In this document: piece after piece, positions 1,215-58,945 of the stretch | Position numbering within the stretch: the first letter of the stretch is position 1 | Layout: each line of letters begins with the position of its first letter | NCBI GenBank assembly: GCA_963514005.1 | Contig: OY740821.1 | Coordinates: 13,144,001 to 13,208,000, forward strand | Direction: 5' to 3' | Source of the DNA: Raja brachyura | Lineage: Eukaryota | Length of the DNA: 64,000 bases | The notes under the pieces: generated by a model | Database searches by the model: none | Told to the model about the DNA's origin: nothing | The model's input: the letters and a program-made list of their open reading frames with translations, nothing else | Position numbers and translations under genes: made by a program

Positions 1215-1880
1215 CCCTCCTTAACTCCCTGGTCAATTCGTCCCTTCCTACCCAAACCACCCCCGCCCCTGGTACTTTCCCCTGCAACCGTAGAAAATGC
1301 TACACCTGTCGCTTTACCTCCCCCCTCGACTCCATCCAAGGACCCAATCAGTCTTTCCAGGTGAGGCAGCACCTCCTCCAACCTCATCTACTGCATCCGT
1401 TGTTCCTGGTGTCAACTTCTCTACATCGGCGAGGCCAAGCGCAGGCTCGGCGATCGCTTCGCCCAACACCTCCGCTCAGTTCGTACAAACCAACCTGATC
1501 TCCCGATTGCTCAGCACTTAAATTCCCCGTCCCATTCCCAATCTGACTTTCCTGTCCTGGGCATCCTCCATTGCCAGAGTGAGGCCCAGTGCTAATTGGA
1601 GGAACAGCACCTCATATTTCGCTTGGGTAGTTTACACCCAGCGGTATGAACATTGACTTCTCTAATTTTAGATAATCCTTGCTTTCTCCCTCCTTCCCCT
1701 CCCCTTTCCCAGCTCTCCCAAAAAGCCTACTGTCTCCGCCTCTTCCTTTATTTTTCCTGCCCCCCCTCCCCCCCGGGGACATAAGTCATAAGTCTGAAGA
1801 AGGGTCTCGACCCGAAACGTCGCCTATTCCTTCTCCCCATAGATGCTGCCTCACCCGCTGAGTTTCTCCAGCACTTTTTG
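1215..1880 (+). mobile_element. Penelope-like retroelement, 5'-truncated (GIY-YIG endonuclease remnant plus pseudo-LTR)
   Basis: Translates as GTFPCNRRKCYTC...TSSNLIYCIRCSWCQLLYIGEAKRRLGDRFAQHLRSVR...LEEQHLIFRLG (PLE linker plus GIY-YIG, with stops and frameshifts). Followed by the hammerhead-bearing terminal repeat. Degenerate TSD tcttcctgcgctat (1201-1214) / tcttcctgtgcaat (1881-1894). Confidence 0.85.
1794..1821 (+). ncRNA. Minimal type I hammerhead ribozyme motif in PLE pseudo-LTR
   Basis: CTGAAGA-A-GGGTC-TC-GACCC-GAAAC-GTC: CUGANGA box, stem II, GAAA box, palindromic ACGT in place of stem III, GUC triplet. Stem I is only ~2 bp. Confidence 0.7.
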
Positions 1881-2149
1881 TCTTCCTGTGCAATGTATTT
1901 TGAGGTAGGAGGAACGAGTATGTGCTGAGTGGCAACAAAATTATTTGCTTTGGACTGTGAGCCCAGAACTAGAGGCATAAAATGAAGCCTATCTCGACTA
2001 ATACCTGGAATTGTATCAGCGATTGTTGGAAGTTCAATGTCCAGATAATACACATGAGGAAGGATTGATAAAAATTAAGTGCAATTGTTTTCTTTATTCA
2101 GACACAGGATGTAGGCGTAGCTAGGCCAGCATTTATTGCCCATCCTTAA

Positions 2150-2660
2150 TTGCCCAGAGAGCTTTGGAAGCTGAGTCATTAAGTATATTCAAGGCCAAGT
2201 TTAATACATTTATGACCCACTGAGGAGTCAAAGGTTATGGGGAACAAACATGCATAAAGCCAAGGCCAGGATCAAATCAGCCATGAAAATATTGAATGGT
2301 AGAGCAGGCTTAAAGTTGAATGATCTAGGTTTCTTTCCCTAAATAAAATACAAAATTAGGAAAGGGATACGCAGAGTAGATAGTAATTTTTTTTCCTATC
2401 GTGCAGGTAACCTAGACAAGAGAGTATAGATTTGTGGGAGATGTAGAAGGTGCGAGGAGAATTGAGAGGGAACTGTTTCACACGGTGGGCAGTTGGAATC
2501 TGCAACACACTGCCTGAAGAGATGGTGTAGGCAGAAACTCTCTCAATATCTAGACAAGTAGTTAAATTGCCTTGGCATAGAGGGATCCAGATCTAATGTG
2601 GGTAAGTGGGATCAATGTATGTGAGTCTTGGGCAGCATGGACATGGTGCTGTATGGCTCC
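2150..2660 (+). mobile_element. CR1-type LINE 3' fragments (degenerate)
   Basis: Typical CR1 3' motifs (tttcacac...ggaatctgcaacacactgcctgaaga; gatcaaatcagccatga...gaatggtagagcaggct). Boundaries approximate. Confidence 0.55.
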
Positions 2661-3439
2661 GACTAAAAATCACATTAATTAACCAATGACATTTTTAATA
2701 ACAGTTCAATAGTTCTGTGGTCACCTTTACTGATACTAACTTTGTAATTCCAGATTTTTAATTCTGGATTTCAGTGGCTCAGCTGGTGTGGTGTGTTTCA
2801 AACTTCTCTGTCTGCAAGTTTAATCCAGGCCTCTGGCCACCTGTTCCAGGCCACTACATCATTGTTCCACTATTACAAAAGTTGTTATTTCTGCTTAACC
2901 GCTAAGAGATGCAATAAAGTTGAGCTAATTGGAGAGTAAAATTCTGCCAGTGAGGAATCTATCTTCCTGCAATGTACTAGGGAACACATTTCAAAGAAAA
3001 GCCCTGTGAAGCAGTGCAGAATGTGCCAAAATTGTGAAGGCGCTGTTTACCAACATCCAAATTCCTCTTTCAGCCCAAGCACTTGGTCAGTTATGTGAAA
3101 ATTACTTTCTCTGGGAAGGTCCACTAAGCAAGCAAATTCAGGCCTGCACCTTCACTTCCTGCTAAGCAGCAAGAGTGTGGCACCGACAGTCCCTGTGGAT
3201 GAGTCACACTGTTCCACCTACACACTCACGCCAATGTCTGGCAGAACGGGAAGTGATTTTTGAATATTGATATTCAATGGTAAAGATCACCAGCCTTCTG
3301 TACTTCTTATGCATTAAGCTAAAGTCTCTGGAGACTAAATTATAAATAAAAAGTGTATTTCCAATTTTCATCCCTTCTTATGCTGAAAATAGTGATTCTG
3401 TGGAGTTACATTTCTTCTGGACAAACTAACAATCTGGGG

Positions 3440-8946: not shown

Positions 8947-9014
8947 TACAAAAAATCTATCTCCACCATCTCAAAGAACACTTGATGGCCGAGGTTCATC
9001 AAATGACAAAGACA

Positions 9015-9240
9015 GTTGACACAAAATGCTGGAGTAACTCAGCGGGACAGGCAGAAAGTTAGTTGTTTCTCTAAATACTGCGGAATACTGCAGAGGGAGT
9101 CAAAACCAATTGGAGTTTCAGTTGAAACAGTGCCCGGCTCTCAGTCTGAAGATGTTTCTTGACCCGAAACATCACCTATTCCTTCTCTCCAGAGATGCTG
9201 CCTGACCCGCTGAGTTACTCCAGCATTTTTTGTCTGTCTT
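9015..9240. mobile_element. PLE pseudo-LTR-derived fold-back element
   Basis: Arms tgctggagtaactcagcggg / cccgctgagttactccagca with a degenerate hammerhead core at 9146-9173. Confidence 0.7.
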
Positions 9241-9469: not shown

Positions 9470-9990
9470 ATGATTCAGTGGTAATTGGCAGACAGGATTG
9501 TCCATTCAAATCTCACTGCAAAAATCTGGCTTTACAGTCCACAATAGTGCTCAGGAAGTGTTGCATTGTTGGGGATGCCGTCTTTCAGATGGCATCCTAT
9601 GCTACCTCAACTCCTTGCCTGTTCTCTCAAGTGGATGCAAAATATTCTGTGGTGCTGCTTCTAAGAAGAGCAAGAGAGTTCTCCCCAGTGTCCTGTTCAA
9701 CAACTATCCTCAAGTTAAAAACAAACTGCTGGAGCAAGTCAGCATGTCAAGCGGCATAGTGGAATTGATATGCGATGTTTCAGGTCAGGACCATTTCTTA
9801 GTATGAAGAAGGGTCCCGACCCGAGTCGTTGCTGATCCATTCCCTCCACAGATGCTGCCTGACCCACTGAGTGCCTCCAGCTCTTTGTGATTTGCTTAAG
9901 ACTCTTACATGTGCAGCACCTTTTGTTTCTACAGTCTTTAAGTTAACATCATTGGAACAGATTATCTTTTCATTTGTGGGAGATCTCTAC
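9470..9990 (+). mobile_element. Deu-domain SINE interrupted by a PLE-derived repeat (~9720-9932)
   Basis: gtgctcaggaagtgttgcattgttggggatgccgtctttcagatg...gaagagcaagagagttctccccagtgtcctg resembles the Deu core; the insert is homologous to the pLTR family. Confidence 0.55.
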
Positions 9991-11364
9991 CTTTCATTGG
10001 GATAGCAGATAGGTGCACTGCTCTCCGATCTGAATGCCCTAAAATCATCAGTATGAGCAAGAGCAGCCAGTCAGTCAAATAGTACTACCAAACCTATTAT
10101 TTTTATCCTCGTTTTCCAAACCCTCTATAATCTCACCCCTTCCTGTTTTTGTACCCCCTTCTAGCTTTAAAACTCCCAAATCTTCTACTCTGGTGTCATG
10201 ACCTTCTCCAAAGCTAATTACTCCACCACTGGTGATCGTGCCTTCAGCCGGCTGGGCCCCAGTTCTGGAATTCCCTCCCTCAACCTTTCCACTTCTTTCA
10301 CCTCTTTAAAACATTCCAAACTGACCAAGCTTTTGTTCACTTATCGCAATATTCAGCATGAGATTCAATGTCGAATTATGTTTGATAATCAATTATACGC
10401 TGCAACCTGGGATGTGTTTTCTACAGGAGCTACAGAAATATGCTATGTTTGAAGCACCTAAGATCTTTCACCTAATAGTGTTACCGAGGCACGGCACTTC
10501 TATACCATATTGATACTGCAGGTACCAATCTGCATCTTATGTCTAAAGAAGGGTCTTGACCCAAAACATCACCCATTCCTTCTCTCCAGATATGTTGCCG
10601 GTCCTGCTGAGTTACTCCAGCACTTTGTATCTATTTATTGCAGGTGACACAGGTATGCCAGCATTCCAAGCATAGAACTATCACACCGTTTCCAGCTTCT
10701 ACTCTGCTGCTAGATAGCACTGATACGACAGAGTCCTCACCCAAGCGGAAAAAGATTCCCATGCCTTGTTTAGCATTAAAGTGCTCAAACAGAGTAAGTT
10801 GGCTTCACATCTGCTTCGGTAAGGGAAAAGCCTCCTATCCAAGCAACAGCACAATACAGTTGGCCTATTCTACCTACTGGAGCAGAGCAGGACCCACTTA
10901 TACACCTCAACCAAAGTACACATTCCTGCACTCCACAGGCAAACAAACCACAGTGAAAGACGGCAGCTCACTGGCACAGGCTTGACGTGCGAGGTCTCGC
11001 CCTAGGCACCCGGAAACATGGATAAATAACCACAGGGATTCCAAATTCTCTGTGCCGATGGGAAAGTGCATCTCCTTGCTCCTCCCCTCACGTAACTACT
11101 GACGGTTAAGAGACTCCAATACTTCTATGTGGCCATCCTCCAAGGGAGGGGATTGGATGGTGTGTGTTGGCAGGCACAGCAGCAAGCCTGGTATACCTCT
11201 AATGCCACACTGGCCACAATCCTGATCTGGCTACACTCGGACCAACCCACTTTTCCAATGCTGACAAGGAGATGCTTAAACTATGGTTTAACAATGGAGT
11301 CTAAGTGACACAGCACGTGGTTGAGGAGGTGGGGAATAGAGGAGCAAGTCACAAAGTCATGCAG

Positions 11365-11620: not shown

Positions 11621-12884
11621 ATGTGGTCACAACAAGTGTCCATCACCAGTTTTGAGCTGTGTGGTTCATTGTCTTTCCCTTTCCGTCTCCACCCCACCTA
11701 CTTTGCAACATTTTCCCCCTTCATCAGAGGGTTCCAAGGGTTAAACGCCACAATCCATTGCAGCTGGATGGGGCCCGTTTTAATCCAAGTCTTTTGACTC
11801 TTTAGCTCTGCCTTTTCAGCAGTACTCGGCCTTCAAAAGGTCAGATTCCACAGGCCCCTCAAACTGCCATAGCTAATGGCAGTATAATCAGGGTCTTTAT
11901 TCAGAAACAATGGTCTTCACACAGGGAGAAACCAGAGGTAGCCCTTTGTGAATTGGCACATCGGACAAACCCGGCTTTGTCAGGCTTTGAGGGCGAATAC
12001 TTTATCAGCCTCCAACTTATCTACTCTGCTTCTGAGGAGAGGAGCCATAATCTCTGACCACTTGGCAAAGTTGGACAGAGTCACCCGCAGGCATTTTCTG
12101 GATTCAACAATTAAACAATTCACAGTGTAGTGTGCAAGCTACTTAACACACTTGTCCTGGCACACAGCAGCTGTTAACGCTATTCTGTGCATTCCCCTGG
12201 CTCCATGTTCAGATCTTAGCCACATCCATATCGATTGACTGGAAATGTTTAATTTTCCTGTTGCATAAATATTCCCCTAGTTCTGGTTCGTAGATGCATC
12301 AAATAAGCAACTGTGCAAGAGAAGAAGGTAAACATGGAATATTTGTTAGTTTCATCTCCTACTCCTCAACGTCTACGCTTTTCTCTAAGAATCCAGCCTG
12401 ACCATTGTGTTGATGTGATGATGGCTACATTCATTAACCAAGCTGAAACGGACCCTCTGTTCTGAGCCACATCATGACAACCAATTGTTCAGCAGTGAAC
12501 AGTATGCTGAAGTCTCCTGATCCAAAACATCAGTAAGTGGAACTGAAGCCCAAACAAGTAGGAGTGCGCAACAATCTGGGCAACAGCACCCACCCTCCCC
12601 ATCAGGCAACTCCTGTGTCACCTGCACAGTCTGTGAGTCCCACTTTCACCGGATCTGATACCTCTGAACCCTGGAATTGGGCAGTCCAAGAAGACAAAGA
12701 ACTAAGCTTGCATTCAGACGGTGCAGTACAGATCAATGAAGAGGTAAAAGGGCTCACATGCTGCCCACCTTCTATATCAAATATTTGCCCAAAATGTTAC
12801 TTACTAACCCGCACATTTCTGGGATGTTGGAGGAAACTGGGGCACCCAAGGGAAACCTACACAAGTCACAGAGAGAATGAAAAT

Positions 12885-13095
12885 CGACACTGGAGTAACT
12901 CAGCGGGTCAGGCGGCATCTCTGGAGAACATGGATAAGTGTCTATTCAGGTTGGGATTCGGGTTTGTTTCGGATTAGTTCCCAATCCGAAACACCACCTA
13001 TCCATGTTCTCCAGGAATGCTGCCTAACCCACTGAGTTGCTCCTGCACTTTGTGTCTTTTTCTTTGTAAACCAGCATCTGCAGTTACTTGTTTGT
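12885..13095. mobile_element. PLE pseudo-LTR-derived fold-back element inserted in a V-SINE remnant
   Basis: ctggagtaactcagcgggtcaggcggcatctctggagaacatggata ... tatccatgttctccagg inverted arms; V-SINE pieces on both sides. Confidence 0.65.
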
Positions 13096-14979
13096 ACAAA
13101 CTTCACACAGACAGCACCAGAGAACTGCTAGGTTCCTCCGTCATTTTGTTTTTTGCTCAAGGCTCCAGCATCTGCAGTCTCTTGTGTCACCAGAATCAAT
13201 CCTGGGTCATTGGATATATAATTATTTGAATGTAAAGTCCCAAGCTGCTGTGGTGAGATTTGAACTCGATTCTCAAGTTTGTAATTACTTTTCCAGTCAC
13301 TTAACCCACTACATTCCACACCAGTGCAGCGCCACAATATAAAGTCATACATAAAATGATTTAATTTCCTCCTTGAAACTAAATCTTAAACCAAAGATTG
13401 CAACAGAAATGTATGCTCTTATTTGATATGTATCCAAAACCTGACAATGTGGTTTTATCCAATGTGCTTGCAAAACCTGTGACAGAGTTGGCTTCCTTTT
13501 TTGTGCTGTTTATGAAATAGTTGACAGATAACTCATTAGAAGAATTTATGAGGTCCAACAATGCGGGCTATTGAGATAAAAAGGCCTCATTACCATCTCA
13601 CTTCTTACACCCAGGCCGCCAAAACATTTGAAAGTTTAAATTGGGACCACTGATCATTAACAAGTGATAAATAGTGAAAGAGGGAGAACAAAAAGATGCA
13701 AGACCACAATTTCCTGTGCCCAAAGGCTGCACTGTAGAGCGGAAAGAAACTGGTTTGGAAGCGAAAATAGCTGAAGCCACCAGCAAAAAGGAGACAGCAT
13801 TGGAGGAACAATGGAAATCTGTGAACAAGGGAGCATTTAAACAATGAGTCTTGCTATTCAACCACCATCACAGTGGCCGAGTCTGGTTGAAAAAGGAGCT
13901 AATATTGAAGCTAAGGAATGATTTAGATATCCAATATCAACACCAATACAGTGCAATAAGACAGGCCAGGCACAAAAGGAAAATTTAGCTTGTCCACACT
14001 AGCTCTTACTTTAAGGAGATACCCTAAAACACGGCATACAAGCGGGCACAAGTTTATGACACTGCAAAGCCTCTTGGTGTGACATTGGCAAAACTTGCAC
14101 CATCGTGTACAGCTCTGTAGGTATATAAAGGTCAAACCTGCTCATGTCACCTCAAACTTTACAAGTCGTCAGAGACAGGTCCTTATCCCAGCAGTCTGGG
14201 CTGGATTCAAACCTAGATTTTCTGTTGCTGCTACTTAAAGTGGAAATAAAAGTACAGTTTTTGATCAAAATAGTGTCAGTTATCATCTTACAAAAGGAAG
14301 TCTACTTGTTCTAAGTGCAATGGTTAATCTCAGCATGAATATTTTATTGTGTCCATTTATTTATTCTATTGTGGAAATGCCTTTGTGGCTTTGCCCTTGC
14401 TGTCGACGTGACTCTCTCCAAATCTACAACCGTGCAAGATTTCTGTGCTCCCACAATTCAGGCCACTTGCTCATCCCTCGACTTTGGTTCTTCCACCGCT
14501 AACAGCCATCTCTGGAATTCCCTTTTTAAACCTTTTCCCCTCGGTTTCCTCCATTACGGTGCTCCTTAAAATCTGCCCCCATAACCAACCCTTTGGTTAC
14601 CCACTCTATTATTTCCTCATGTGGGGCAGAGTCAGTTTTAGTCAGTAAGCAGTTGTGATTCACCCAGATATTCCAAGATTCAAATTCTGGAGACAACATC
14701 TGGACTTGGAGGCAACATCTTGACTTGGAGGAGAACGTGCTAATATTTATCACTTGATCAAGGTTGACTTTCATCAGCATCTCATGACTTTACTTGCTTT
14801 AGCAAAGAAGAGAAATGAAAGACAATTTATTTCATGAAGTCTACTGCACCCACAACCCTTGTAAAATGTAATCCATTCCTCAACTTAACCCCACTTCCAT
14901 GATGTGAAGTAGAGCTATGCAATGCTTCTCCCTATGACATACTAACTCTAGGGCTGCAGCTAGTCAAATCTCCAAAATG

Positions 14980-15380: not shown

Positions 15381-18270
15381 CTTTTTTTTCTGTTTTACTG
15401 TGCACAGAGCTTCTAACAAATGATACTCACTGCCATTCTTCAAATTGCTCGAAAATATTTATGCCCCTCAGAGTATTCATTGGTCTAACTCTACACATCT
15501 GGACAATTAATTCCATCCTAAATCTGCTGTTTCATTTCAGGATTTGATTTGCTAGATTGAACCCACACTTAAAGCACACGGTGTGTTGCAGAGAGCAGAG
15601 ACAAAATCCTTTGATCTCTATTGAGATGCTGTCTGAAAGCAGCCCAGAGAAATGGGCAGCGATATGTTGAATTTATGGCTGTAAACTCATAGCATAAAGC
15701 AGAGTATAAATTATTGAATTACGCAGGATATATGGCATGGTCCATTTGGCCCAACCAGTCTATGGTGGTGTTCATACTCCACCTGAGCATCTTTCCTTAT
15801 CTAAATCTCTCAATTTGCCCTCTATCCCCTTCTCCCTTAAATGGTCGTTCAGTCTCCTTTTCAATGCATATGTGCCTCAACCACTGTGAGCGAGTTCCAC
15901 CTTCTAACTACTCTTTGGATAAGGTGAATATCCTATTGTGTTTCATTGTACACGAGACCCATGAGTGTCATTCATGGGAACAACATGGGACAACAAAGCT
16001 TACATCAGTACAACAGGCGTGCTCAGATGTAGGAGTTCACACTTCACAAGAACAGTGTTGGAGGGAGGGTTTATTTCATTGAGATGCTATGATATACCTT
16101 ACCTGGGAGTGTCCCCAAAGCACCTGACCCAATTACTTTGTACAAGTTGGACACAGGGTACTGGAGTAATCTAGCAGATCAAATAGCATCTCAGGAGAAC
16201 TTGGATTTTGGGTTGGGACACTTGCAGAGATGCTGCTTGACCGGTTGAGTTACTCCAGCACTTTGCGTCCTTTTTATCTAAGCCAGCAATTTGCAGCTCT
16301 GTGTTTCTACCTTCTATACTTTGTACGTGTCTTTCCCTCAATGTCCAAGTGACTTCCTGGGTTTACTGACCTGGCAAATGATCTTGTGGAAGAGGATGGG
16401 AGGGAGATAATTAGCCTCTTGACTGCTGAGCTCAGAGCCACAACGCATTGGTAACAAAATGGAAGGTTTGTTGTCAGTGCTGTGAAGACCTACTCCACAA
16501 CGAAACACTGAGCAGGGCTGGAGATGTGTTGAAGTCGAAACAAATGGACTGTTGGTGTTATGCTAATTGAGACACAGTCATGACCCCATGCTGGCCTTTA
16601 TTCTCCCTGGCAGATCACACTGGGAGTTCTTCCCCCAGCCATGCACAGAATTCTCAATTGTCTTTTTGTCTTTTTAGAAAAAAAATCAGTCAGTGCAATC
16701 TGGATAAAAGGCAATTGGTCATACATGGTTGGCACTGTGTGACTCAATGGGCTTCATCATGTAGCCTATTGGAATCTGCAGTTCCGGTGCACACTCCCGG
16801 GAACAAAGAATGCCTTTTAGATACGAGGATGAAAGACTTGTTCTTTTGCCACACCTACTGCCACTTTAGTACGTCCTTGTAACTTACAAGTCTGAAGTCT
16901 GTATCATCAGTCTGAAGAAGGGCCCGGGCCCAAAACGTCACCCAACCACATATTCTAGAGAGGCAGCCTGAAAGCTCACAATTATCATATACCCTTCACT
17001 TTCCATCCTTCTCTCCTGATTCAAGAATATTGACAACACAAACTTGCCATTATGCCCTTATGATCTGTCCCGGTTCTCTGCCCCGCTGTCCTTGATCTGT
17101 CCCATTTCTCTGCACCTCTATGCTTCTTCACCACCCCCCCCCCCCCCCTTTTAACCATAGACTCCCCCTGTGGAAGGGGATACTGTTCAACTATAAGCTC
17201 TCCGGTGTCTCAATCAAGTGAGAACTGGACAGTAAAGGGATAAGATACTCTGAGTCTGGAGTGGATCACAACCGTTCCTCTCCTCGCCTGCTGCGAATAC
17301 GTGCGCAAGAATTTTCCAATGGTGAAGAGTGGTCGCGTTTGTTTCCCGGGCCAGTGAAAAGGTGGGTTTGCCCTTCCACCAACTCCCGAGAGAAGGGAGG
17401 AAACTGACCCGGACTGGAACGCGAGAAGAGACAATGTCAGGCAATACCAGACAATACCAATCACCCGCAAAGCGTTACACCACTCAGAATGAGAGCCACA
17501 CTCGTTCATCTGGATTATTCATACAGTCTGCATACTGTAGATTATAAACACTGATGCGACATGCACTTTGCAAAACTGGTAGACACCATTTCTTCACATG
17601 TCAGGGTGCAGAAAGTCTAACTTCAGGGTCGAAGGGTGAGTCACGTTCAGTACAAAACACCATTGTGATTTCACGGCAACAGACGTGCCGCAAGAACGAT
17701 CTGCTTTCAGTCACTCCGGTGTCATGAGGCCTTCCCAGACAATAAACTCAGTGTAACGGTCGGGGAGATATCCACACCACAGTGTATTGTGGGCTCTTGG
17801 CTAATACCTATCACAGATGCCCGGCATCTTAACGGGAAAGCAGTCTGAAGAAAAGCGTCCGCTCAGACAGACTGATACAGCTAGAAAACGCATTGGTGAC
17901 GAAACATTAAAGCATAAACTGCATTGTATCCTGCCCAGTTCATCTGTCCACACCATCTCTGTGAGCCAACAAAGCAGGAGAGCCGGCTCAGAAACCAGTT
18001 ATTTTCCAACTCGCCATTTCCCCTCACTTCAAAAGTGAGTATGTAATCGGAGAAGGAAAAAAACTGCACATGCTGGAAATATAAAATTTAAAACAATGAA
18101 CTCTAGAAATTCTCAACGTGGGTGAAGGGAGGAATAAGATCTAGACTTCTGAGCCAAACACAAACATTCTCGCTGCATGCATCGTCTCCTCCCATTCTTC
18201 CATATCGTCTGGAGAATACAGTCCCAGGTCACTCAATCTCTCCTCATGTGACAAACCCACCATTCCTGGA

Positions 18271-18478
18271 TAGGTACAAAGTGCTGGAGTGACTCAGCCG
18301 ATCAGGCAGCATCTCTGGAGAAAAAAGAAAGGTGATGTTTTGGGTCGGGATCCTTCTTCAGTCTGACCCGACTCAAAACGTCACCTATCCATGTTCTCCA
18401 GAGACATGCCTAACTCGCTGAGTAACTCCAGCATTTTGAGTGTCTTTGGTATAAACCAGCACCTGCAGATCCTTGTTT
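18271..18478. mobile_element. PLE pseudo-LTR-derived fold-back element with TSD
   Basis: Inverted arms flanked by the direct repeat ccaccattcctgga (18257-18270 / 18479-18492). Confidence 0.8.
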
Positions 18479-18706
18479 CCACCATTCCTGGAATTAGTCT
18501 GGTAAATCTTTGCTGCTGTCACGCTAGGACAGATACTGTATATCCTTTCTTAGGTAAGGAGACCAGTAATAATCTCACTTGGGCACCTTCTCCTTCTAGT
18601 GGTCCACAGCAATTTTTTTCCCCTTATTTATTCATTCATTTTCCAAGCTCAGGGCTTCAAGGGCATTATCAAGCATTTACTTCTCTAACTGCCCAGTTCT
18701 GACATT

Positions 18707-18931
18707 CTGGAGAACATGGATAGGTGACGTTTCACAGAATGCTGGAGTAACTCAGCGGGTCAGGCAGCATCTGTGGAGAACATGGATAGGTGACGTTTCA
18801 CAGAATGCTGGAGTAACTCAGCGGGTCAGGCAGCATCTGTGGAGAACATGGATAGGTGACGATTCACAGAGTGTTGGAGTAACTCAGCGGGTCAGGTAGC
18901 ATCTCTGGAGAACATGGATAGGTGACGTTTC
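18707..18931. repeat. 66-bp tandem repeat (~3.4 units) of pLTR segment
   Basis: agaacatgga recurs at 18711, 18777, 18843 and 18909. Confidence 0.9.
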
Positions 18932-20974
18932 GGGTCAGGACTCTTCTTCAGTCTGAAGAAGGTTTCTGACCAAAAACGTTGCTTATCCACGTTCTCCATG
19001 GATGTTGCCTGACCCGATGAGTTACTCCGGTACTCTGTGTCTTTCCTTTGTAAACCAGCATCTGCAGTTCCTTGTTTCTACATTCCTCACTATCAGCCAC
19101 ACTGGGCAAGAATAGCAGATATCCGCACAAATCCAGTACTTGAGGTCAACACCAATTAATTCTGGATTATTAACCAAATTTAAATTCCACAGCCGCTGTG
19201 GTCCGATTCAAACTCAGTCTCTGGATTGCCGCTATCATACCCGGGACAGCAGTGAAGGCACCCTGCCCCACAAAGCAGCACCAGGCAATATCTTATGTCT
19301 ATCTGAGAGTACAGATGATCCCCCCCAGCTCAGATAGAGCAGCATTCCTTGGAGGGTGAGCCTTGAGTGAAATGTGAATTCACAATGCCTGAAACTTCAG
19401 CCCCTCAGAATTTAGTGGAAAAAAAAAACTTGATTCACTTACAGATTCTCTCTCATCTTTTGGTCATGCTGGAATAGTCCCTCGCTAAGAAACCCTTCTG
19501 TATGTAGAGCTAGAAATCCAGGGGTTACAAAGTGGAAAATGTGTTGACACAGACAATGTGAGGTAATTTTATGCAGGTATCTTGTCATTAATACTGATTG
19601 GTACGAGGTTGTTTTTCTGGCATTCAGATTGCTCACATGACGTCAACATTAGTGCAACACCCAAAGTCTGTCTCCTGTGACATTTTCAAACAAGTTGGCC
19701 TAAATAATGACAGGCATTGTTCACCCAGAAAAAAAAATCTGTTTTTAATAACGCTCAAACTGAATATTATTTAAAAATGTATCAGTCATAGGTAGACTGC
19801 ACCACATCGCTCTACATGCTCTCCTCTCACTCTACAACATGTTCTCCTTCAACACTGACCCTTCCTTCCATTTTAAAACACTTTGCTGCCATCAAAACTG
19901 CCATTTAAATACCCATCTTGTGCAAAGTGAGGGTGTTTGCAAACTGTATTAATGTCCTTACAGAGAGTAAGTTCCCATCTAGATGTATCCTTGAATTGGT
20001 ATAAGGGTGTAAAAGAAGCCGACTCCCAAGGCACCCAGTCACCCCTCACAATTCCCTAGCCTCAGGAGCGCTCTAGGTCCCATCTTCAGATGTAAACCGC
20101 ATCCCAGAGGTCGCTGATCACTGCTGCATCAGGGATGTGACTGACACTCTCTACCAGAACAGGCTTCAAACACTTTTACTTTAGCCCACATGAACAGGCT
20201 GAACAGGGAATTTTGTTCTTCGAAGGAAAATTCTCTGACCCTACGCCAAAGCATTATCCCGTCCCTTATTTTTGAAATACAATGAACTGAGGACATCACT
20301 CCTGTGGATGAGCTGACCCCCACCAGGATGACCCACTGCCCCAAAATATTCCTGTCATTAAACCCAGGAACACACTCCCTGCCATCAGGGAGCAGCCAGC
20401 TATGCTGAAGTGATCACTGCTCACCAATCACTTGAAGGGTGCTGGTGGTATTGACTACTATACCTTTAAGAGTTGTCTGATGAGGTATGCATCTAAGTCC
20501 TCGCAGCACTGAGAAATGTGATCAGAAAATTCTGCTGCTCCTGAGACAGTCAAATGAGGGAGATAGAATGACGTTTTTCAACTGGTACTCGTGAACTTTG
20601 CAATCGTTGACGTACTTTTTAAAACAGCAACAAGAAGGCACAATAATCATGTTTTAACATTTTAAAAAGCACAAACAGAGGCCCATTTCTTATACGGATC
20701 TGTGGATAGATAGATGCTTGATACACAAGGGGTTGAAAGATTTCCAGGATAGGCAGGAATGCAGAGTTTCGGTCACAATCAGATCAGCCATGATCTTATC
20801 AAATGAAGCAGCGGGTAAAGGAGACGAGTGGCCTCCTCCTAAATCGTATGGGGAACACAACAAAATAAACTGAAGGAAGAGCTTAAAACCTTCAGAGGAA
20901 CTTCAGGGGTCAGAGGGTCTTGGGCACCCAGCTCCCCCCCACCTCTCAGTGATCTAGGAGCTCAAGGTTAACCT

Positions 20975-35498: not shown

Positions 35499-35684
35499 GG
35501 GTAGACAAAAGTGCTGGAGAAACTCAGCGGGTGCAGCAGCATCTATGGAGCGAAGGAAATAGGCAACGTTTCGGGACGAAACGTTGCCTATTTCCTTCGC
35601 TCCATAGATGCTGCTGCACCCGCTGAGTTTCCCCAGCACTTTTGTCTACCTTCGATTTTCCAGCATCTGCAGTTCCTTCTTAAA
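35499..35684. mobile_element. pLTR-derived near-perfect fold-back element with 15-bp TSD
   Basis: 74-bp arms 35500-35573 / 35577-35650 (1 mismatch, 3-nt loop); TSD cagaataaatctcct at 35484-35498 / 35685-35699. Confidence 0.9.
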
Positions 35685-37000: not shown

Positions 37001-37285
37001 TGGTATTGCAAATTGTATGAAATACGTGCCAATCAATAATATACTTTGAAAAGTTTTCGTTTTTCCCAAAATCTAAAATAGAAGTAAATCATTTATATAA
37101 ATGGGCTATTTTTAAAACGCTGTTAACACCGTCATTTCAAATCTTCCTGCTAACCTTTCGTTGTTCCCATTTTGTCCAAAAGGTGTTGTTTCAAACCGGA
37201 TTACTTAATCTTATAAAATCGAGGAACCTGTTATGCCTTGTCCACCCACCCCCTCTCTTCCATCTTTCTCTTCCTCACTCCCTCC

Positions 37286-37309
37286 CTCTCTCTCTCTCTC
37301 TCTCTCTCT
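37286..37309. repeat. (CT)n microsatellite within a pLTR-family copy
   Basis: Direct inspection. Confidence 0.9.
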
Positions 37310-38068
37310 ACAATCAGTTTGAACAAGAGTCTCGATCCGAAACGTCACCTATCCATGTTCTCCAGAGATGCTGCCTGACCTGCTAATCCAACACATTGTG
37401 TCTTGCTTTACTTAATCTTATGATCTTTGGTACTGTCTCACGTTCAATTGAACCTGTCCTCATACATACACACGCACGCACATACCAGGAGGGGGCAGTA
37501 GACAGGGGTCGCGAATGCCAATTAATTTTATACCCACCTTAACTGAGGTGTATGAAGACAGGAGGGGGTGAAAGCTGTGTTTGCTCCATCATACTTCAGC
37601 TAATGTCAGTCAGCCAAGGACCAAAGATGAATCTTCCATATTTTGCATAGTTTAAACAGTTCCACAAATATTATCTTTTCACCCAATTAAGAGAAAGCAC
37701 GTTAACAGGCTGTGGATTTCTGCCCTTATACACTAGCTTTCAGATATGGGTCACAAAATCAAGGGCTGAAGTGTGTTTATTTCAATGCAAGGGGTGCTAT
37801 GGGTGAACTACAATGAGTGCATGGAACTACAATTGTAATTGTAATTCATTTATTAGCCAAGTATGTAAAAACATACAAATAATTTGATTTGCCATAATCA
37901 TACCAAAAAAGCAACAAGACACACAACATAAAAAATAACATAAACATCCGCCACAGCGCACTGCGATGGAAGGCAATAACGTGTTATCTCCTTCCCTCCT
38001 TTTCTCCCGCGGTCGAGGCAGTCGAACCATCCGCAGTCGAGGCGATCGAAGCTCCCGCAGCCGTTGCA

Positions 38069-44882: not shown

Positions 44883-45191
44883 TTAGTTCTATAATTATCA
44901 AATGTACCGAGGTACAGTGAAATGCCATTCTGCATGCTCACCAGTCAGATTGGATAAACCCTACATTGTAGTTATCGGTTCTCAAATTAAAACATTTTTT
45001 TTGTCTTCAATGCGGGCTCGACCAGGATTTATTGCCCACTTACAGAGTGCCCACGAGCCGTGGTGGGTGTTAAAAATGAACACCAATCATAGGCCTCGAG
45101 TCACACATTGGACACCCTGGGGTGAAGATGGCAGACTTTTATTCAAGGACACTAACAAATCAGATGGGTTTAACAATCTAACAATCCCAGT

Positions 45192-45219
45192 CTGAAGAAG
45201 GGTCTCGACCCGAAACGTC
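45192..45219 (+). ncRNA. Minimal hammerhead motif in a TSD-flanked pLTR element (45184-45284), RPS26 intron 1, antisense
   Basis: CTGAAGA-A-GGGTC-TC-GACCC-GAAAC-GTC; TSD ttaacaatctaaca at 45170-45183 / 45285-45298. Confidence 0.7.
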
Positions 45220-45463
45220 CCCTTCTCCTTCGCTCCTTAGATGCTGCTGCACCCGCTGAGTTTCTCCAGCTTTTTGTGTAACCCTTAACAATCTAACAGC
45301 TGTTTTTCTCAAATTCTTTGGGGGAAAAAGATATCCAGATATAATCATTTGAATTTAATTTCTCTTATAGCCACAGATTCAAAAATGTTCTTGGAGCAGT
45401 GCTCCACAACACTCCCTGCTAACATAGTAATTTAGCCTCTGTGTTAACACTATGTACAACATG

Positions 45464-45688
45464 TTGTTAAAGAAGGAACTGCAGATGCTGGAGAATCGAG
45501 GGTTACACAAAAAGCTGGAGAAACTCAGCGGGTGCAGTTTTTCAGGTCATTGGTGGAGGTAAGGCGGGACAGGAATTTTTCAGGCCCTTGGTGGAGGGAA
45601 GAAGGGTCTCGACCCGAACGTAGCCTATCTCCTTCGCTCCTTAGATGCTGCTGCACCCGCTGAGTTTCTCCAGCTTTTTGTGTAACCC
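45464..45688. mobile_element. pLTR-derived fold-back element in RPS26 intron 1
   Basis: Inverted arms; TSD tatgtacaacatg (45451-45463) / tatatacaacatg (45689-45701). Confidence 0.8.
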
Positions 45689-45806
45689 TATATACAACAT
45701 GCTAGGTTGACAAACACATCAAATTGACATTGCTCTTCACATGTGTTAGTGCCGGATGATATTTGACATGGGGCTGAATTCTTGTACCGTTATTCCCCGA
45801 CTCAAT

Positions 45807-45834
45807 CTGAAGAAGGGTCTCGACCTGAAACGTC
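45807..45834 (+). ncRNA. Minimal hammerhead motif, RPS26 intron 1, antisense
   Basis: CTGAAGA-A-GGGTC-TC-GACCT-GAAAC-GTC (G-U at the base of stem II). Confidence 0.6.
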
Positions 45835-46875
45835 ACCTATTCCTTTTCTCCAGTGATGCTGTCTGACCAGCTGAGTTACTCCAGCTTTTTGCATCTATCT
45901 TCGGTTTAAACCAACAACTGCAGTTCCTTCCTACACAACTATTAATTTACTGGAGCATTATAAATGGTAACCAAAATGTAACTTTAAACCAGTTGCATAC
46001 CACCTCCTTGCACACAAATTCACATTGCTCTGGAGACTTGACTCAGCTTAACAAAACTATGCATGCACCATTCTGGGGATTAAGGATCTAATGAATAGAC
46101 CTGTTTAAGCGAGAACTTCTTCAGTGCAGACTTGGATAGATTTGTTTCTCCAGAATAGTTCTCTCTCCATTGATGTGTGTTCCATTGCTTTTTATTGTAT
46201 GACTGACTTGGCAAATGAAATTCCTCATTTGTTGCAAAACATACTTGGGTAATAAAGCATTATTGTAATTGTGACGTTGCCTGGCCTGCTGAGTATTTCT
46301 TGTTTGTTTTTGGAGATTAAAAGCTCTGCAGTTAAAAAATGTGTGCACCAGTCTACCTATGGATTCCGTATATTCACATTTTCATCTGCCTCGAATGATT
46401 TTATTCCATATTAACGTTAAAATCAGGCGCAGATTGTGGAACAGGGCTCCAAATACACACAGGCCTTTTTGTATTTGGAAGCGGTTCCTCGCTTCGAACT
46501 ACAATAAGTATGTCTCCAATAGTGAGTAAATTCGAGTTATATCATATCGAAATGTCAACAGAATGTAACATCAGGTCGTTTCTGCTGGCTGGCTTGCAGT
46601 GCAATTGACAGACGGTGTCCCCATCGATCGACCCACCCAGCAAGCCGCCTCCGCCAGCCTCCGGGTGCCCGCACAAGGCGGCCCAGCCCTGCGGGGAGGC
46701 AGGCTCCTGGGCCGGGCCCGGCATGTAGGCCTCGGCCCGCAAACGGCTCAGTGCTTCGACCACCCGCTTCCCAGGGGGCGAGAAGGGTGGTCGAGGCGGG
46801 AGGGCGAGGGCTAGACGGGGAGCGGGGCGACGCTGGCGGCGGCGGGAGGAAGCGGCGAGACGGGCCGACACTCAC

Positions 46876-50409: not shown

Positions 50410-50685
50410 AGGTAGACAAAAGTGCTGGAGAAACTCAGCGGGTGCAGCAGCATCTATGGAGCAAAGGAAATAGGCAACATTTCGGGCCGAAACCCTTCTT
50501 CAGACTGATGTAGGGTGGGGGTGGGGGGGGGGGGGGGCGGGGAGAATAAAGGAGAAAGGAAAAGGAGGAGCCCGAGGGCAGAGGGAGAGCTGAGAAGGGG
50601 AGGAGACAGCTACCGGAAATTGGAGAAGTCAGTGTTTATGCCGCTAGGGTGCAAACTGCCCAAGCGGAATATGAGGTGCTGCCTG
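50410..50685 (-). mobile_element. Penelope-like element 3' end (EN tail plus pLTR), nested in another pLTR-family copy
   Basis: Reverse complement of 51520-51777; hammerhead core with GAAAT variant at ~50466-50493. Confidence 0.8.
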
Positions 50686-51258
50686 AAACTTTGTGTCAGG
50701 CAGCATCTGTGAAGGGAAATGAACACTCAATGTTTTGGGTCGGGACCCTTCTTCAGACTGATTGGAGTATGGGTGGGGGGGGGGAAAGAGGTGTGCAGCT
50801 GGAAGTGAGGAGACGGGGGTGTGACAAAGCCAGGCAAGTGATAGGTGGATACAGGTGAGGGGTGGATGGATTGGCAGATGGGTGGAGACAGTGACAAAAG
50901 GCTGGAGATGAAAAGGAAACAAAATGGTGTCAGATAAGGAGAGAAGAGGTGGAATGATATGCAAAGCCAGAGGTGAGGGGGATATAGATGGAAGAGGATG
51001 GGTTTCTCTCTCCAGATACAACCTGACCCATTGACCATCTCCAGTATTTTCGGTTCTATTTCACCATCCCTGGCATCGCTATATATTTCTATTTAGATAG
51101 GAACCATTTGCAAACACATTGGTTGTCTGTGGAAGAGAAAATGTAGTATTCCCTGTATATGCATTATGTCCAGATTATACCTAAACATTTTCCTTTCTAT
51201 GCTTGTTGATCAGACAAAAAGTGTGTATGGGAATAAAACAAGTTCATAAGTCACGGGA

Positions 51259-51777
51259 ATGGGTGCGACAGAGGTTCACCTGCACCTCCTCCAACCTCAT
51301 CTATTGCATCCGCTGCTCTAGATGCCAGCTGATCTACATCGGTGAGATCTACATCGGCGTAGGCTTGGCGATCGTTTCGCCGAACACCTCCGCTCGGTCC
51401 GCATTAACCAACCTGATCTCCCTGTGGCTCAGCACTTCAACTCCCCCTCCCATTCCGAATCCGACCTTTCTGTCCTGGGCCTCCTCCATGGCCAGAGTGA
51501 GCACCACCGGAAATTGGAGGAGCAGCACCTCATATTCCGCTTGGGCAGTCTGCACCCCAGCGGCTTGAACATTGACTTCTCCAATTTCCGGTAGCCCTTG
51601 CTGTCTCCTCCCCTTCTCAGCTCTCCCTCAGCCCTCTGGCTCCTCTTCCTTTCTTCTTCCCGCCCCCCACCCTGCATCAGTCTGAAGAAGGGTTTTGGCC
51701 CGAAACGTTGCCTATTTCCTTCGCTCCATAGATGCTGCCGCACCCGCTGAGTTATTGGTCCAGCATTTTTGTCTACC
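51259..51777 (+). mobile_element. Penelope-like retroelement, 5'-truncated (GIY-YIG plus pLTR)
   Basis: RQRFTCTSSNLIYCIRCSRCQLIYIGE...; small internal duplication gatctacatcgg; TSD tcataagtcacggga (51244-51258) / tcataagtcatggga (51778-51792). Confidence 0.9.
51682..51709 (+). ncRNA. Minimal hammerhead motif (subfamily variant)
   Basis: CTGAAGA-A-GGGTT-TT-GGCCC-GAAAC-GTT. Confidence 0.6.
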
Positions 51778-51838
51778 TCATAAGTCATGGGAGCAGATTT
51801 AAGCCATTCGGCCCACTCCTCCATTCAATCATGGCTGA

Positions 51839-52047
51839 AGGTAGACAAAAGTGCTGGAGAAACTCAGTGGGTGCAGCAGCATCTATGGAGCGAAGGAAAT
51901 AGGCAACGTTTCGGGCCGAAACCCTCCTTCAGACTGATGGGGCATCCAGCATCTGCAGTTCCTTCCATAGATGCTGCTGCACCCGCTGAGTTTCTCCAGC
52001 ACTTATGTCTACCTTTGATTTTCCAGCATCTGCAGTTCCTTCTTAAA
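51839..52047. mobile_element. pLTR-derived fold-back element in a CR1 tail
   Basis: TSD caatcatggctga at 51826-51838 / 52048-52060. Confidence 0.8.
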
Positions 52048-55000: not shown

Positions 55001-56589
55001 AGGATCGCAACACAATATACTTTAGTGTTTGAAATTAAGGCTTGGTGCTGTTGTTACCTCTTTGATGGTGAAGAATGCAAGTCTTGTTTAGTCATGACCC
55101 AAAGCTTGTTCCTTCCACAATCCTCTCCACCGTGGAATTGATCCAACCGATTTTATCTCGCAAGGATTAAATCTGAGATTCTTCTGGTCTGTATGGTTTA
55201 GTGCCCCAAAATTACCCAACCGAGTAACAAGGTTTTTAATCAAAATTTAATTAAAAAACATGATGTTAAAGTAACACTTAAATCACTCCACCCCCTTGTA
55301 CTTTCTTTTTGGAGAATGATTGAAATGTGAGACATGTCCTTAAAACTCATGTCTTTCATTACGTTAAAAAACAAAGTTCTGGAGTAACTCAGCTGGTCAT
55401 GCAGCATCTCTAGAGAACATGGACAGGTCATGTTTCGGGTCAGGAGCTTTCTTCTGGCTGATGGTCTTTCATTATAGAGCAACCACACTTCATTGATAAA
55501 TTATAAGCCATAAAGTACATAAATCAAAGCCTTATTTTAACCATAAGGCAAGATTTGTAATTATACTAAACTGGCATTCGGGAAACTTGTGCTTGGATAG
55601 GTTTTTTTCTTTAAATAAACTGTCCAAATCAACTCCTCCAAAGCAGACACATTGGTTCAATGTATATTTGAGATTCTTCTACACTACTATGTCATTCATG
55701 CCAAGTTAACTGAAGTTGGACTGAAGTTCTGCATCAATTTATCAGTCTCATTTATTCCTTTTCTTGCCAGATCCTTCAGTTGCTTCAATCTGGACTGGAT
55801 GCAAAATGTTTTCAAGAGAGTAATTGTCTTCTGCATTAGAACCCAAGACTGCTAATGTCAATTTGGTGATAGTGCTGGGAAAGGCCTCCCAGATTATCCT
55901 TTTCCATTTGCAAGGTTTAAGGTGATGTGGAGTTGGAAGTGACAGGAATTGATCCACAGCCTAGGATAGGACAACAGATAGGATTCAACAGGTGATCTTT
56001 ATGCTCATCAAGGTGATGGTCATCATGGGTGAAAAAAAGGAATGACCTATTTTCGACATTGTCAGATAGCTCGGTGAGGTGTTTTTCATGAAAAACAAGG
56101 TAATTTTTGCTTTGTCCAATTATATCTGTCAAGCACCTTGTTCAAGTTGATTATTTTTACAACTGTCGTTGAATTTAAATGGTCAGTTCATCAGCTATTT
56201 TGTGCTGTGGACTCACTAGAAACTAGACTGGTGCTGAACAAACTTCATTTCTGGGTTTACACCAGCAGGGAAGATATTAAACTTGAACTTTGAATTTAGC
56301 TCCATACACATTTAAATGTGTGTCAAACTGAATCAGTACAAATCTCATGATTCCTTATTCTCACAAGCGTACACTGAAAATTACATTTAAAATATCAACC
56401 CAATTCAAATTTGGGCAAAAATTGATTAAAATAAATGCAGAAATGCATGGTGTCTGGTAATTGTAATTGTTACAGTTTTCTCATTCATACTGCATTAGGT
56501 GCAGTTATGTTGAGGGAGGATTCGTTTGAACCAAAACATGTAATGTCGGCTGGTTTTGTCTGTCGTTGCAGCAGTTGTTTTCCAGTCTC

Positions 56590-57020
56590 TCCTAACATGA
56601 CAGCATGAGGTTCAATGGCAAAACTCCCAAGTCAGAAACCTTCCAGTTAAATCTCATCCCCATTTCAAGCACATTATCTAAGACAAGTTGAGTTTGGTAT
56701 TGCGGAAGTGCTGCATAGTTAGAGATGGCATATTTTAGATGAGTTGTTACACAAACTGCAATCTTAGGTGGACATAAAAGATTCCACAGGTTTATCTGGA
56801 GCGTGGAGAAATTCTCCTCGGTGTCCTGGTTAACATTCTATTATCGACACTATCAAAACCAAATGAACTAGCAATCTCATTTGCAGTTTGTGGTACCTTG
56901 TGCGCAAAATGCAAACTGCATTTGCCTGCAAGAGGGAATGCTCCCAAAGCATTTCAGTCTGTGTGAAGCAAATTGAATGTTTCTAAGAGTCACCATTAAG
57001 CGCTATGTAAATGCAAGAAA
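56590..57020 (+). mobile_element. Deu-domain SINE (degenerate)
   Basis: gcggaagtgctgcatagttagagatggcatattttagatgag...aattctcctcggtgtcctgg...gcgctatgtaaatgcaag. Confidence 0.6.
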
Positions 57021-58917
57021 TTCCCTTACCCAATATAAACGGTATACTCTTTTATCTCATTGCAGGCCTTGTGCGCATATTGGCAGCCGCATTTGCCTGT
57101 GTGCCAACACTGATTATGCTACAAAATGTGTGAAATGCTTTGCCACTTGCTGGGATGTGAAACGCACCGTGTAGGAAAGATCTTTATTAGATTGTCCAAG
57201 TTTTTTTTTAAAAAGCTTCCTTGCAATTATGGCACATATGTGGATATCTATCCGGCAATGTTTATACAAAATAATGTGATTCCAGAGCACCAAGTCACCA
57301 GTGTTGTGTGATTTAGAAAATAACCAACTTGTCAACGGGTTCCTGAGTTTCTCAAGTTTATTTTAGTAGACCTTCAGCCATGACAGTACAAAACTTACAG
57401 TAGTTTTTCTCCAGTACACAAATATATATAATTATTATAATACATGTACAAAGGCTCTGGAGCAGTTTTTAAAAGCAACATAATGCAATTCATATTGATC
57501 ACAGGAGAAAAAAAGTCAAGACAATAATGGTCTGTTATCGTACTTACACACAAACGTATACGAATAAGTCCATCAAGAAAACTACTGTAAAGAGGGACAG
57601 TGGAGTATTGCACTTGGAATTCCGTACATTGTATAAAAACACAAGATTCACGCATTTTAAACACGCTATGGGTCAGCTTTTTTGAGGCAGCACATCGTTA
57701 TTAAGATTACATTTTACTGTCCTCAGACCAATTAACAGTTTCAAACTAAACAAAATTTACACCTACAGGTTAAAAAACTGCTTGCAAAAATCAAATCAGC
57801 AAGGTACAACAAATGCGATTATTTATAATTGATAGTCGATCCAGAAGTCAGTTTATCATTAATGTCATATTCACATTTTCATGAGGTATATAATATGTGC
57901 ATGTTATTTTTTTTTATTTAAAAAAAAATTGAAATTGAGGGACTGGGGCTTACCTCCATCTTTATCAGAAGTGGGCATTTTCTGAGAATCTCTCTAAATA
58001 GCCTAAGACATGCAGTTATACTCCACTTTAGCATGTATTTAGCTTACATACTCAAAGTGTATATAATGTTTTCCCCTCCAAACAACGGAGGCTTCTTCTT
58101 TAGGTTAGTGAAGTATATTGTTAAGCAGTCCACACAAACACACAGCAAAATTAAAAGTAGAAAATAGTGGCAGGTGAGTCGGCATCTAAAAAGATAAGTT
58201 AGGTCCATTGACCTGCATTTGTACCATTTGTGGTTTTCTTTAGGTTGCCAGCATTTCCACATTTTAGTTTTTTTCTATGCAAATTGTTGTGTACAACTAA
58301 AATGTCTCACATTCTCCCCACTGCAAATGAAAATGTCATCATTTGTTAAAATAAATAATTTCAACCACTGAAAGGAATATACTTCAAGGCAAGCCTCAAA
58401 TCCTGTGCACCATACTCTAAAATTGACCAGTTTCTGAACACAAAAGCAGGGTGGAAAGAGGAATTTGCATTTTATATTCATTGTAGTATAAATTATAATG
58501 GTCTTTCACAGTGCCCCTAAATTGCAGTCTTCAATCCAGAAACACAACCTTGTAATCACCACACATTGCATCCTCGGTTGCCCTCAAGGATGAGACACAA
58601 CAAACAGCATCCTTTGCCAATACTGTGCCCGTTTAGAAGATTGGCACAAACACAGACAAATTATGTGTGTACTAATTTGCTTTAAAGTAATACACCAGCT
58701 CAAAAGGTGAAAGACAACCATTAAATCACACTCACATCATTCAGGTCTATATGCTCTTTAATACTTGACTGTCCAGCAAGATGATGAGATTCATTTGAAG
58801 GTATCCTATCACTGAAATCAAGTGAGCAAACAACATTTATTCAGCTTTTCCATGCCCTCCATTTAGGGCTGTGAAACTCAAAATTGAGCATAGACAGAGC
58901 TAGCCGACTACCTCTAT

Positions 58918-58945
58918 CTGAAGAAGGGTCTCGACCCGAAACGTC
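58918..58945 (+). ncRNA. Minimal hammerhead motif at the 5' edge of a ~92-bp TSD-flanked element (58919-59010)
   Basis: CTGAAGA-A-GGGTC-TC-GACCC-GAAAC-GTC; TSD ctacctctatc at 58908-58918 / 59011-59021. Confidence 0.7.

Follow-up and report, generated by a model that had tools for sequence, protein, structure and literature searches.

We analysed a 64,000-nucleotide stretch of the Raja brachyura genome (GenBank assembly GCA_963514005.1, contig OY740821.1, positions 13,144,001 to 13,208,000 of the forward strand; hereafter the window) in which a short hammerhead ribozyme motif recurs in many dispersed copies. All counts are drawn from this window. The motif is numbered with C3 as +1, which places the predicted cut site after +28. 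An initial annotation had taken these copies for a discrete, retrozyme-like, non-autonomous family derived from a Penelope-like element (PLE), with extreme 5' truncation of ordinary PLEs as the alternative. Our analysis favours truncation. With a probability of about 0.8, the copies are 3'-anchored truncated or fold-back insertions of autonomous Neptune-type PLEs, belonging to several subfamilies of different ages.

A profile hidden Markov model (HMM) built from 19 natural arms gave 50 matches in the window at a threshold of E<0.05; the reversed window gave none. With up to two mismatches allowed, a degenerate core pattern matched 13 times against 0.00 expected from 100 shuffles. Sorted by eye, the HMM matches form 33 insertion units, 14 inverted and 19 solo, and with its long copies the family occupies 5,784 bases, or 9% of the window. 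All 20 sites named by the initial annotation carry the motif, but its figure of about 20 copies in 64 kb was too low. The plus-strand coordinates that it gave are those of C3, except that 37318 is one off and 45601 lacks C3 and U4; its minus-strand coordinates are the low end of each motif, with C3 at 18361, 18951, about 31096, 50503, 50756, 51932 and 55456. The five cores that it called intact (1794, 45192, 45807, 51682 and 58918) are exactly those that keep 11 of 11 core positions together with a paired stem II and ACGT. A scan of Rfam returned no hammerhead family at E<=10; its top matches, miRNA precursors at 35521-35629 (best E 2e-7, under the gathering threshold), come from the inverted unit at 35.5 kb. 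Metagenomes scanned with the DNA pattern gave no match, and two weak loci from a protein scan (42-60% identity) were set aside. The copies are as follows, with their target-site duplications (TSDs) and one of two 3' ends, short or long (the tail).

1212..1880, plus strand: copy A, 669 bp, a 5'-truncated PLE with CX4CxxC linker, GIY-YIG/CCHH end with a deletion and a stop, and pyrimidine untranslated region (UTR); intact core 1794, short 3' end; TSD 1201-1211/1881-1891, 11 bp, 1 mismatch
51259..51777, plus strand: copy B, 519 bp, GIY-YIG endonuclease end, core 51682, short end; TSD 15 bp, 1 mismatch
50410..50684, minus strand: copy C, 275 bp, last endonuclease codons, UTR, core 50503, short end; exact 10-bp TSD
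50695..51063, minus strand: older copy, core 50756, about 250 nt of a different pyrimidine UTR, small inverted arm 51008-51063
37217..37408, plus strand: solo copy, about 100 nt of upstream UTR, decayed core 37319; TSD 16 bp, 1 mismatch
45184..45284, plus strand: solo copy, 101 bp, 5' end -8, intact core; exact 14-bp TSD; antisense in rps26 intron 1
58919..59010, plus strand: solo copy, 92 bp, begins at the core; exact 11-bp TSD
55362..55463, minus strand: decayed solo copy, 102 bp, 5' end -7; exact 11-bp TSD
10524..10635, plus strand: decayed solo copy, 5' end -19; TSD 10 bp, 1 mismatch
34206..34295, plus strand: solo copy with 5' filler, homology from about +20, without the CUGAnGA box; exact 14-bp TSD
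45798..45937, plus strand: solo copy, intact core 45807, long (tail) end; TSD not found
28520..28625, plus strand: solo copy, core 28529, short end; TSD not found
16904..16971, plus strand: 3'-truncated copy, the sole copy with C-G at stem II position 4
31013..31101, minus strand: internally deleted copy, core and tail
35499..35684, both strands: young head-to-head inverted unit, arms 99% identical and joined inside stem II, short end on the left arm, tail on the right arm; exact 15-bp TSD
51839..52047, both strands: inverted unit, minus arm with core 51932 and short end, plus arm with tail; exact 13-bp TSD
45464..45687, both strands: inverted unit, minus arm with tail, 60-nt filler, plus arm with damaged core 45601 and short end; TSD 14 bp, 1 mismatch
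18271..18478, both strands: inverted unit joined at CAG-T-CTG, minus arm with core 18361 and short end, plus arm with tail; exact 14-bp TSD
18706..19085, both strands: inverted unit joined at CAG-T-CTG, cores 18951 (minus) and 18953 (plus), plus arm with tail, minus arm running into a tandem array
9717..9936, both strands: old inverted unit, core 9803, plus arm with tail
12876..13103, both strands: old inverted unit without whole cores, plus arm with tail
16144..16316, both strands: old inverted unit without cores, plus arm with tail; exact 10-bp TSD
33475..33599, both strands: inverted unit, minus arm with tail, short deleted plus arm; TSD 14 bp, 1 mismatch
24577..24704, both strands: old inverted unit, tail piece (minus) and deleted plus arm; TSD 10 bp, 1 mismatch
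9014..9240, both strands: arm pair, minus arm 9014-9054, plus copy with core 9146, 85 nt between them, both with short ends, TSD not found; may be two separate insertions
26012..26181, both strands: old inverted pair with blurred ends, profile matches
62954..63197, both strands: old inverted pair with blurred ends, profile matches

Four of these insertions cluster at 50400-52060, where copy C was inserted within the older copy 50695..51063, cutting into the 3' part of the latter, and an inverted unit follows copy B by about 60 nt.

The copies that reveal the origin of the family are A, B and C, which continue 5' on the same strand into the end of a GIY-YIG endonuclease, the hammerhead lying 3' of the PLE open reading frame (ORF) on its sense strand. 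The copies had been described as having no ORF, which fails for the cores at 1794, 51682 and 50503, as these adjoin the 3' end of GIY-YIG ORF remnants. The stop-free stretch of copy A matched Pfam GIY-YIG at E 1e-3, under the curated cut-off. Its identity is 77-81% with proteins of the little skate and 63% with a stingray protein that contains a YIDD reverse transcriptase (RT) motif and has the same C-terminus as copy B; 97 longer relatives of this stingray protein mostly carry RVT_1, and some carry GIY-YIG too. The endonuclease is C-terminal with an internal CCHH, arranged as LIY-C..C-YIG..H..H in copies A and B, and in copy A it is preceded by a CX4CxxC linker. In the accessible part of Craig et al. 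(PMC8557442), a CX2-5CxxC linker is not found in Penelope/Poseidon, and the linker of copy A therefore points to the Neptune type. The source would be a Neptune-type endonuclease-bearing (EN+) PLE, an assignment that rests on linker and endonuclease, with no RT sequence in the window. Copies A, B and C have TSDs and share the short 3' end with the 100-bp copies. Four public read runs from related animals, whose species may differ from that of the window, covered the endonuclease of copy B at about 0.2-0.6 of the core depth, depth being different from copy number.

We compared long and short copies in a tree of 19 of the 20 cores over 84 columns, with 31097 left out as a long branch. Copies B and C cluster with the short copy 51932, and copy A stands beside both young groups. 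An approximately unbiased (AU) test rejected a tree in which the endonuclease-bearing copies are held apart from the short copies (p=0.0024), and did so at p=5e-5 when UTR-bearing copies were included. The short copies thus have neither a lineage of their own by this test nor a fixed shared 5' end, since their 5' ends are spread.

The ends of the copies are those of PLE insertions. Of the 28 units tested, 14 lie between TSDs that are 10 bp or longer and mismatch at no more than one position, compared with 2% of 150 random controls, and two more emerged after limits were corrected, at 33573 (14 bp) and 37318 (16 bp). The resulting total of 16 units with 10-16-bp TSDs agrees with the short TSD-flanked copies reported at the outset. 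Far-upstream 10-bp TSD candidates for 45807, 31097 and 16912, from a search without a control, were taken as chance. The 3' ends of the 50 matches fall at +84..+103 in 24 cases, at +126 or beyond in 13 and elsewhere in 13, the last partly by over-extension into flanks, and define two fixed sites at about +94 and +131. Solo copies delimited by TSDs start at -582, -423, -181, -101, -19, -8, -7, +2 and +6, and all end within +87..+96. Of 11 clear inverted units, 10 carry the long end on one arm and not on the other, compared with 3 tailed units among 14 clear solo ones (p=0.001, or p=0.015 with unclear units counted against the contrast). Junctions of inverted units centre on CAG-N-CTG just 5' of the core or on the stem II palindrome. 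Arm-to-arm identity is 96-100% in three young units and 72-81% in five old ones, a measure that does not separate snap-back from two templates. Fillers lie between some arms, with 60 nt containing an internal direct repeat at 45538-45597 and a piece of the element's own tail at 51941-51964, which suggests RT template jumps. The accessible parts of PMC8557442 and PMC3846280 describe 5'-truncated PLE insertions in which a pseudo-long terminal repeat (pLTR) lies inverted alongside, one end has a tail of 30-40 bp, junctions are palindromic and TSDs measure 8-10 bp, as well as solo pLTRs.

The motif consists of CUGA-A-GA followed by an additional A, then stem II (4 bp, closed by a loop of 4 nt, CUCG/UUCG/CCCG), GAA and A-CG-U-H; the 5-bp stem II drawn earlier would force a 2-nt loop. 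All 11 tested core positions (C3-U4-G5-A6-N7-G8-A9, G12-A13-A14, A15.1-U16.1 and H17) are intact in 9 of 20 cores, and the commonest loss, G12A at a CpG (6 of 20), looks like neutral decay. Cells of stem II are 85% paired, and the whole structure reaches 85% compared with 9-44% for slid controls. Stem II had been said to vary while staying paired. This applies to one pair only (U-A 16, U-G 3 and C-G 1 in 20 rows), with a single copy carrying a double-sided change and 324 of 500 shuffles scoring as high. The extra A between 9 and 10.1 is confirmed in 95% of the 20 rows, but its comparison with the variant of chrysanthemum chlorotic mottle viroid (CChMVd) is superfluous, as PLE hammerheads have it as a standing feature (PMC4209133). 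The G10.1-C11.1 pair is present in 16 of 20 rows, and the consensus has an ACGT palindrome at 15.2-16.2, so that stem III would, as first proposed, be able to pair in a dimer only. Minimal hammerheads of PLEs are characterised by a base between 9 and 10.1, G10.1-C11.1 and palindromic 15.2-16.2 (Cervera & De la Pena 2014, PMC4209133), and these together with the core make this a motif of known kind. The hammerhead is the known minimal type I motif of PLE pLTRs, with cleavage itself predicted. The PLE-type minimal hammerhead and PLE origin of the initial annotation are upheld.

The 5' ends show a more complex pattern. We counted them on 45 arms, 5 of the 50 matches being dropped (array repeats, a second piece and a tail-only piece). 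Starts lie inside the motif in 21 arms (+9 to +66), within -12..+8 in 18 and farther upstream in 6. The overall range is +66 to -582, and short copies span +66..-19 with a mode at -8..-4 and a scatter of 10-20 nt between copies. The sequence 5' of short copies is mostly not pyrimidine-rich, which makes a hidden UTR unlikely. The TCAGTCT before the core matches the Initiator consensus, YYANWYY. Of 19 cores, 11 have this pattern at -5..+2, or 13 once two anchors are corrected, compared with 1.2% of background positions, and it overlaps conserved hammerhead bases. TCAGTCT serves equally as acceptor of a 90-nt pyrimidine GT..AG segment (51591-51680) that starts at the ORF stop in copy B. Intron-like GT..pyrimidine..AG segments from ORF stop to hammerhead are present at 51591-51680, at about 1670-1792 and at 50505-50612 (minus strand). 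One DNA contig (run X3) skips 90 nt, 51587-51678, with a side of 22 nt, under the 30-nt caution limit, and is a hint only of an intron; among the RNA joints listed, no read skips the 90-nt segment. In Drosophila Penelope, the accessible text of PMC4209133 and PMC2377424 places the start site 46 nt before an intron whose end adjoins the hammerhead. In the RNA run X23, the largest 5' loose end among those listed is at 51679, the A of the TCAGTCT motif (1175 reads). Neither of two RNA runs had a spot with many RNA starts or ends, a weak test given fragmented oligo-dT and single-cell libraries of which 5% and 1% were read. Reads of the single-cell run X21 over 51241-51810 represent mostly the minus strand of copy B (about 8000 compared with 1200-1800 over the core).

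We propose the following course for an insertion. Staggered nicks by the element's GIY-YIG endonuclease would produce the TSDs seen in the sequence. RT would start at either fixed internal site, about 94 or 131 nt 3' of C3; the two end classes are seen, and their role as RT starts is suggested by PAc, the Poseidon element of the anole Anolis. Uncut RNA would be copied through the hammerhead, as the cores lie inside the copies and none of the ends falls at the cut site. RT would usually halt early, with the hammerhead front edge as the commonest stop, and the stopped cDNA could become a solo copy of about 100 bp. Alternatively, it could be joined head-to-head to a second arm via CAG-N-CTG or the stem II palindrome, at the junctions seen, yielding an inverted unit in which one arm has the tail; snap-back or priming by two ribonucleoprotein particles may supply the second arm. 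In a minority of copies, RT would read on through the C-rich UTR into the endonuclease. Neutral decay of the core, mostly at CpG, would follow insertion, and cleavage, if any, would be relevant in tandem source elements and not in solo or inverted copies.

Several observations weigh against this truncated-PLE account. Of the 33 units, only 3 include endonuclease sequence. The 64-kb window, which has no full-length element, did not show the autonomous master of any subfamily, and it offers no long copy for the young clade 45192/45601/58918. The densest 21-nt window of 5' ends holds 20 of 45 arms, where truncation fitted as exponential or log-normal predicts about 11.5; this cliff has p values of 0.0004 and 0/5000 under the two smooth fits, which are optimistic because the arms of a pair have their junction in common and the HMM floor lies near -11. 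The top loose ends in three of the four read runs also lie at 51675-51680. The non-smooth length distribution anticipated by the initial annotation is therefore real, with 20 of 45 ends in one 21-nt window. A literature search without most subscription papers found no published account of such a cliff at the hammerhead edge. Its cause is, on balance, probably that RT stalls or snaps back at the border between hammerhead and C-rich tract, with run-off from a transcript starting at the cliff a serious but lesser possibility; re-mobilisation of short copies added to run-off is less likely still. In its full form, the run-off explanation would make the short copies PLE strong-stop DNA that starts at TCAGTCT, with an internal RT start in the 5' pLTR and run-off at the cap. 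Genomic 5' ends would then mark the start site, and 100-140-bp modules could re-mobilise like short interspersed elements (SINEs) without cleavage. We find this version doubtful. We regard as distinctly improbable a self-propagating SINE-like pLTR module, transcribed from TCAGTCT, reverse transcribed from +94 or +131 of the 5' pLTR to run-off, and re-mobilised in trans without cleavage as 100-140-bp copies. Such a module would account for the cliff at -8..-4, with shorter arms continuously below it, for the excess of YYANWYY and for the loose end of run X23. The accessible parts of PMC8557442 also place the start site inside the pLTR in Penelope and Chlamys, and those of PMC3846280 describe a rotifer host gene mobilised in trans by pLTR cis-sequences. 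However, there is no mass RNA start in the two RNA runs (the weak test above), 5' ends vary by 10-20 nt among copies, the bases concerned serve equally as a 3' splice site with the Drosophila start 46 nt before the intron, and the short copies have no lineage of their own.

The truncated-PLE account is compatible with a rival that is about activity only, namely that the motif is a conserved PLE end, a promoter or protein-binding site, that resembles a hammerhead and never cleaves. We consider this unlikely, although the minimum-energy structures of natural copies do not form the hammerhead and do not exceed shuffles in stability (z -0.59 to +0.32), and co-folding two copies without constraints produced no stem III dimer. 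Stem I has 1-5 of 5 pairs, position 17 is U in one young subfamily, and 8 of 9 Xenopus dimers were inactive in vitro (bioRxiv 10.64898/2026.07.22.740005). Yet all core positions, the extra base, G10.1-C11.1 and 15.2-16.2 fit the PLE consensus (PMC4209133), and the PLE motif of the anole cleaves in the presence of the element's protein and is rescued by C3G/G8C (PMC11167929). A non-LTR (long terminal repeat) retrozyme, in which dimeric cleavage of tandem transcripts would give circular monomers to be copied by PLE RT into new sites, is very improbable here. Retrozymes do derive from PLE pLTRs and have been reported from the single chondrichthyan genome examined (bioRxiv 10.64898/2026.07.22.740005), so that this genome may contain arrays outside the window, and core columns are conserved at 0.93 compared with 0.82 for other columns (permutation p=0.0014), in rows that had been chosen for cores. 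The accessible text of that preprint and of PMC7761336 defines retrozymes as tandem repeats with whole hammerheads in consecutive units, an arrangement that is absent from the window. The only tandem array of the family, 66 bp x 3.4 at 18708-18931, has a unit without CUGAnGA box and stem II, and same-strand cores are at least 209 nt apart, in separate insertions. Rolling-circle monomers should be cut or permuted at the cut site, but 0 of 50 matches have a 3' end at +26..+30 and 1 of 50 a 5' start at +27..+31. No RNA ends pile up at the cut site in the two RNA runs, a weak test with poly(A)-type libraries, stem II covariation is at shuffle level, and inverted units with tails are products of PLE target-primed reverse transcription, not of a rolling circle. 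Collectively, these results do not support a discrete retrozyme-like non-autonomous family: long copies share the 3' end and TSDs of the short ones and interleave with them on the tree, 5' ends are widely spread, no array has whole cores and no arm ends at the cut site. The same 3' end, TSDs and AU result make 5' truncation of ordinary PLEs, the alternative of the initial annotation, the better fit.

The window also contains other features. The rps26 gene lies at 44431-46878 on the minus strand (Pfam Ribosomal_S26e), with its ATG exon ending near 46876 and intron 1 reaching 44871. The core-bearing copies in this intron, 45192, 45601 and 45807, are all antisense and the only sense arm is coreless, numbers too few for a selection test. 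A second dispersed repeat of about 280 bp, with copies 68-80% identical at 7776-8085, 8692-8950, 11363-11593, 28646-28922, 29513-29791, 39710-39989 and 40964-41182, is probably a SINE. Two frames, 41502-41903 (minus strand) with an L1-like C-terminus and 38790-39122 (plus strand) with a CR1/L2-like RT start, presumably resemble remnants of ORF2 of long interspersed elements; neither had a Pfam match at E 1e-3 in a scan covering 146 of the 155 long frames.

Batoid genomes appear dense in PLE end modules, at about 9% of this window, which mimic miRNA hairpins and could be miscalled as retrozymes. Inverted units such as that at 35521-35629 could yield false miRNA calls or real double-stranded RNA hairpins. 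The motif and the fold-back and truncated insertions are already known; what is left unexplained is the many copies that start at the motif's front edge. If the cliff were a transcript start, it would represent a PLE run-off product not described in the literature searched, and with thousands of copies the model of PLE priming could be tested on genome sequence alone.

Compared with the PLE hammerheads of PMC4209133, which are mostly solitary, probably truncated PLEs, with pairs 100-700 bp apart on opposite strands, the copies here are alike in core, extra base, G10.1-C11.1, palindrome, solitary copies and opposite-strand pairs. Stem II is 4 bp here, whereas it is 7-8 bp in Schistosoma, and we found no elasmobranch example in the main text of that paper. 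Judged by the accessible parts of PMC8557442 and PMC3846280, the family shares with Neptune EN+ PLEs the C-terminal GIY-YIG/CCHH, the CX2-5CxxC linker, 5' truncation, an inverted adjacent copy, a 30-40-nt tail, palindromic junctions, TSDs and solo pLTRs. It differs in its very high density (33 units in 64 kb), in TSDs of 10-16 rather than 8-10 bp and in the sharp 5'-end pile-up. Anole PAc has two internal RT starts one tail apart, about 110-120 nt past stem II, with both strands extended, an uncut RNA template and no RNA ends at the cut site (PMC11167929). The two 3' end classes a tail apart and the one-arm tail agree with these RT starts, found in vitro in 2024, although here they are read from sequence alone; PAc belongs to a different clade, and the hammerhead described here showed no ORF start codon inside it. 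Non-LTR retrozymes, as far as the accessible text of PMC7761336 and bioRxiv 10.64898/2026.07.22.740005 describes them, are alike in type I hammerhead, weak stem III, PLE pLTR ancestry and lack of protein. They form arrays with a core per unit and circular RNA, whereas the copies described here are solo or inverted, their one array is coreless and their ends lie at PLE RT start sites.

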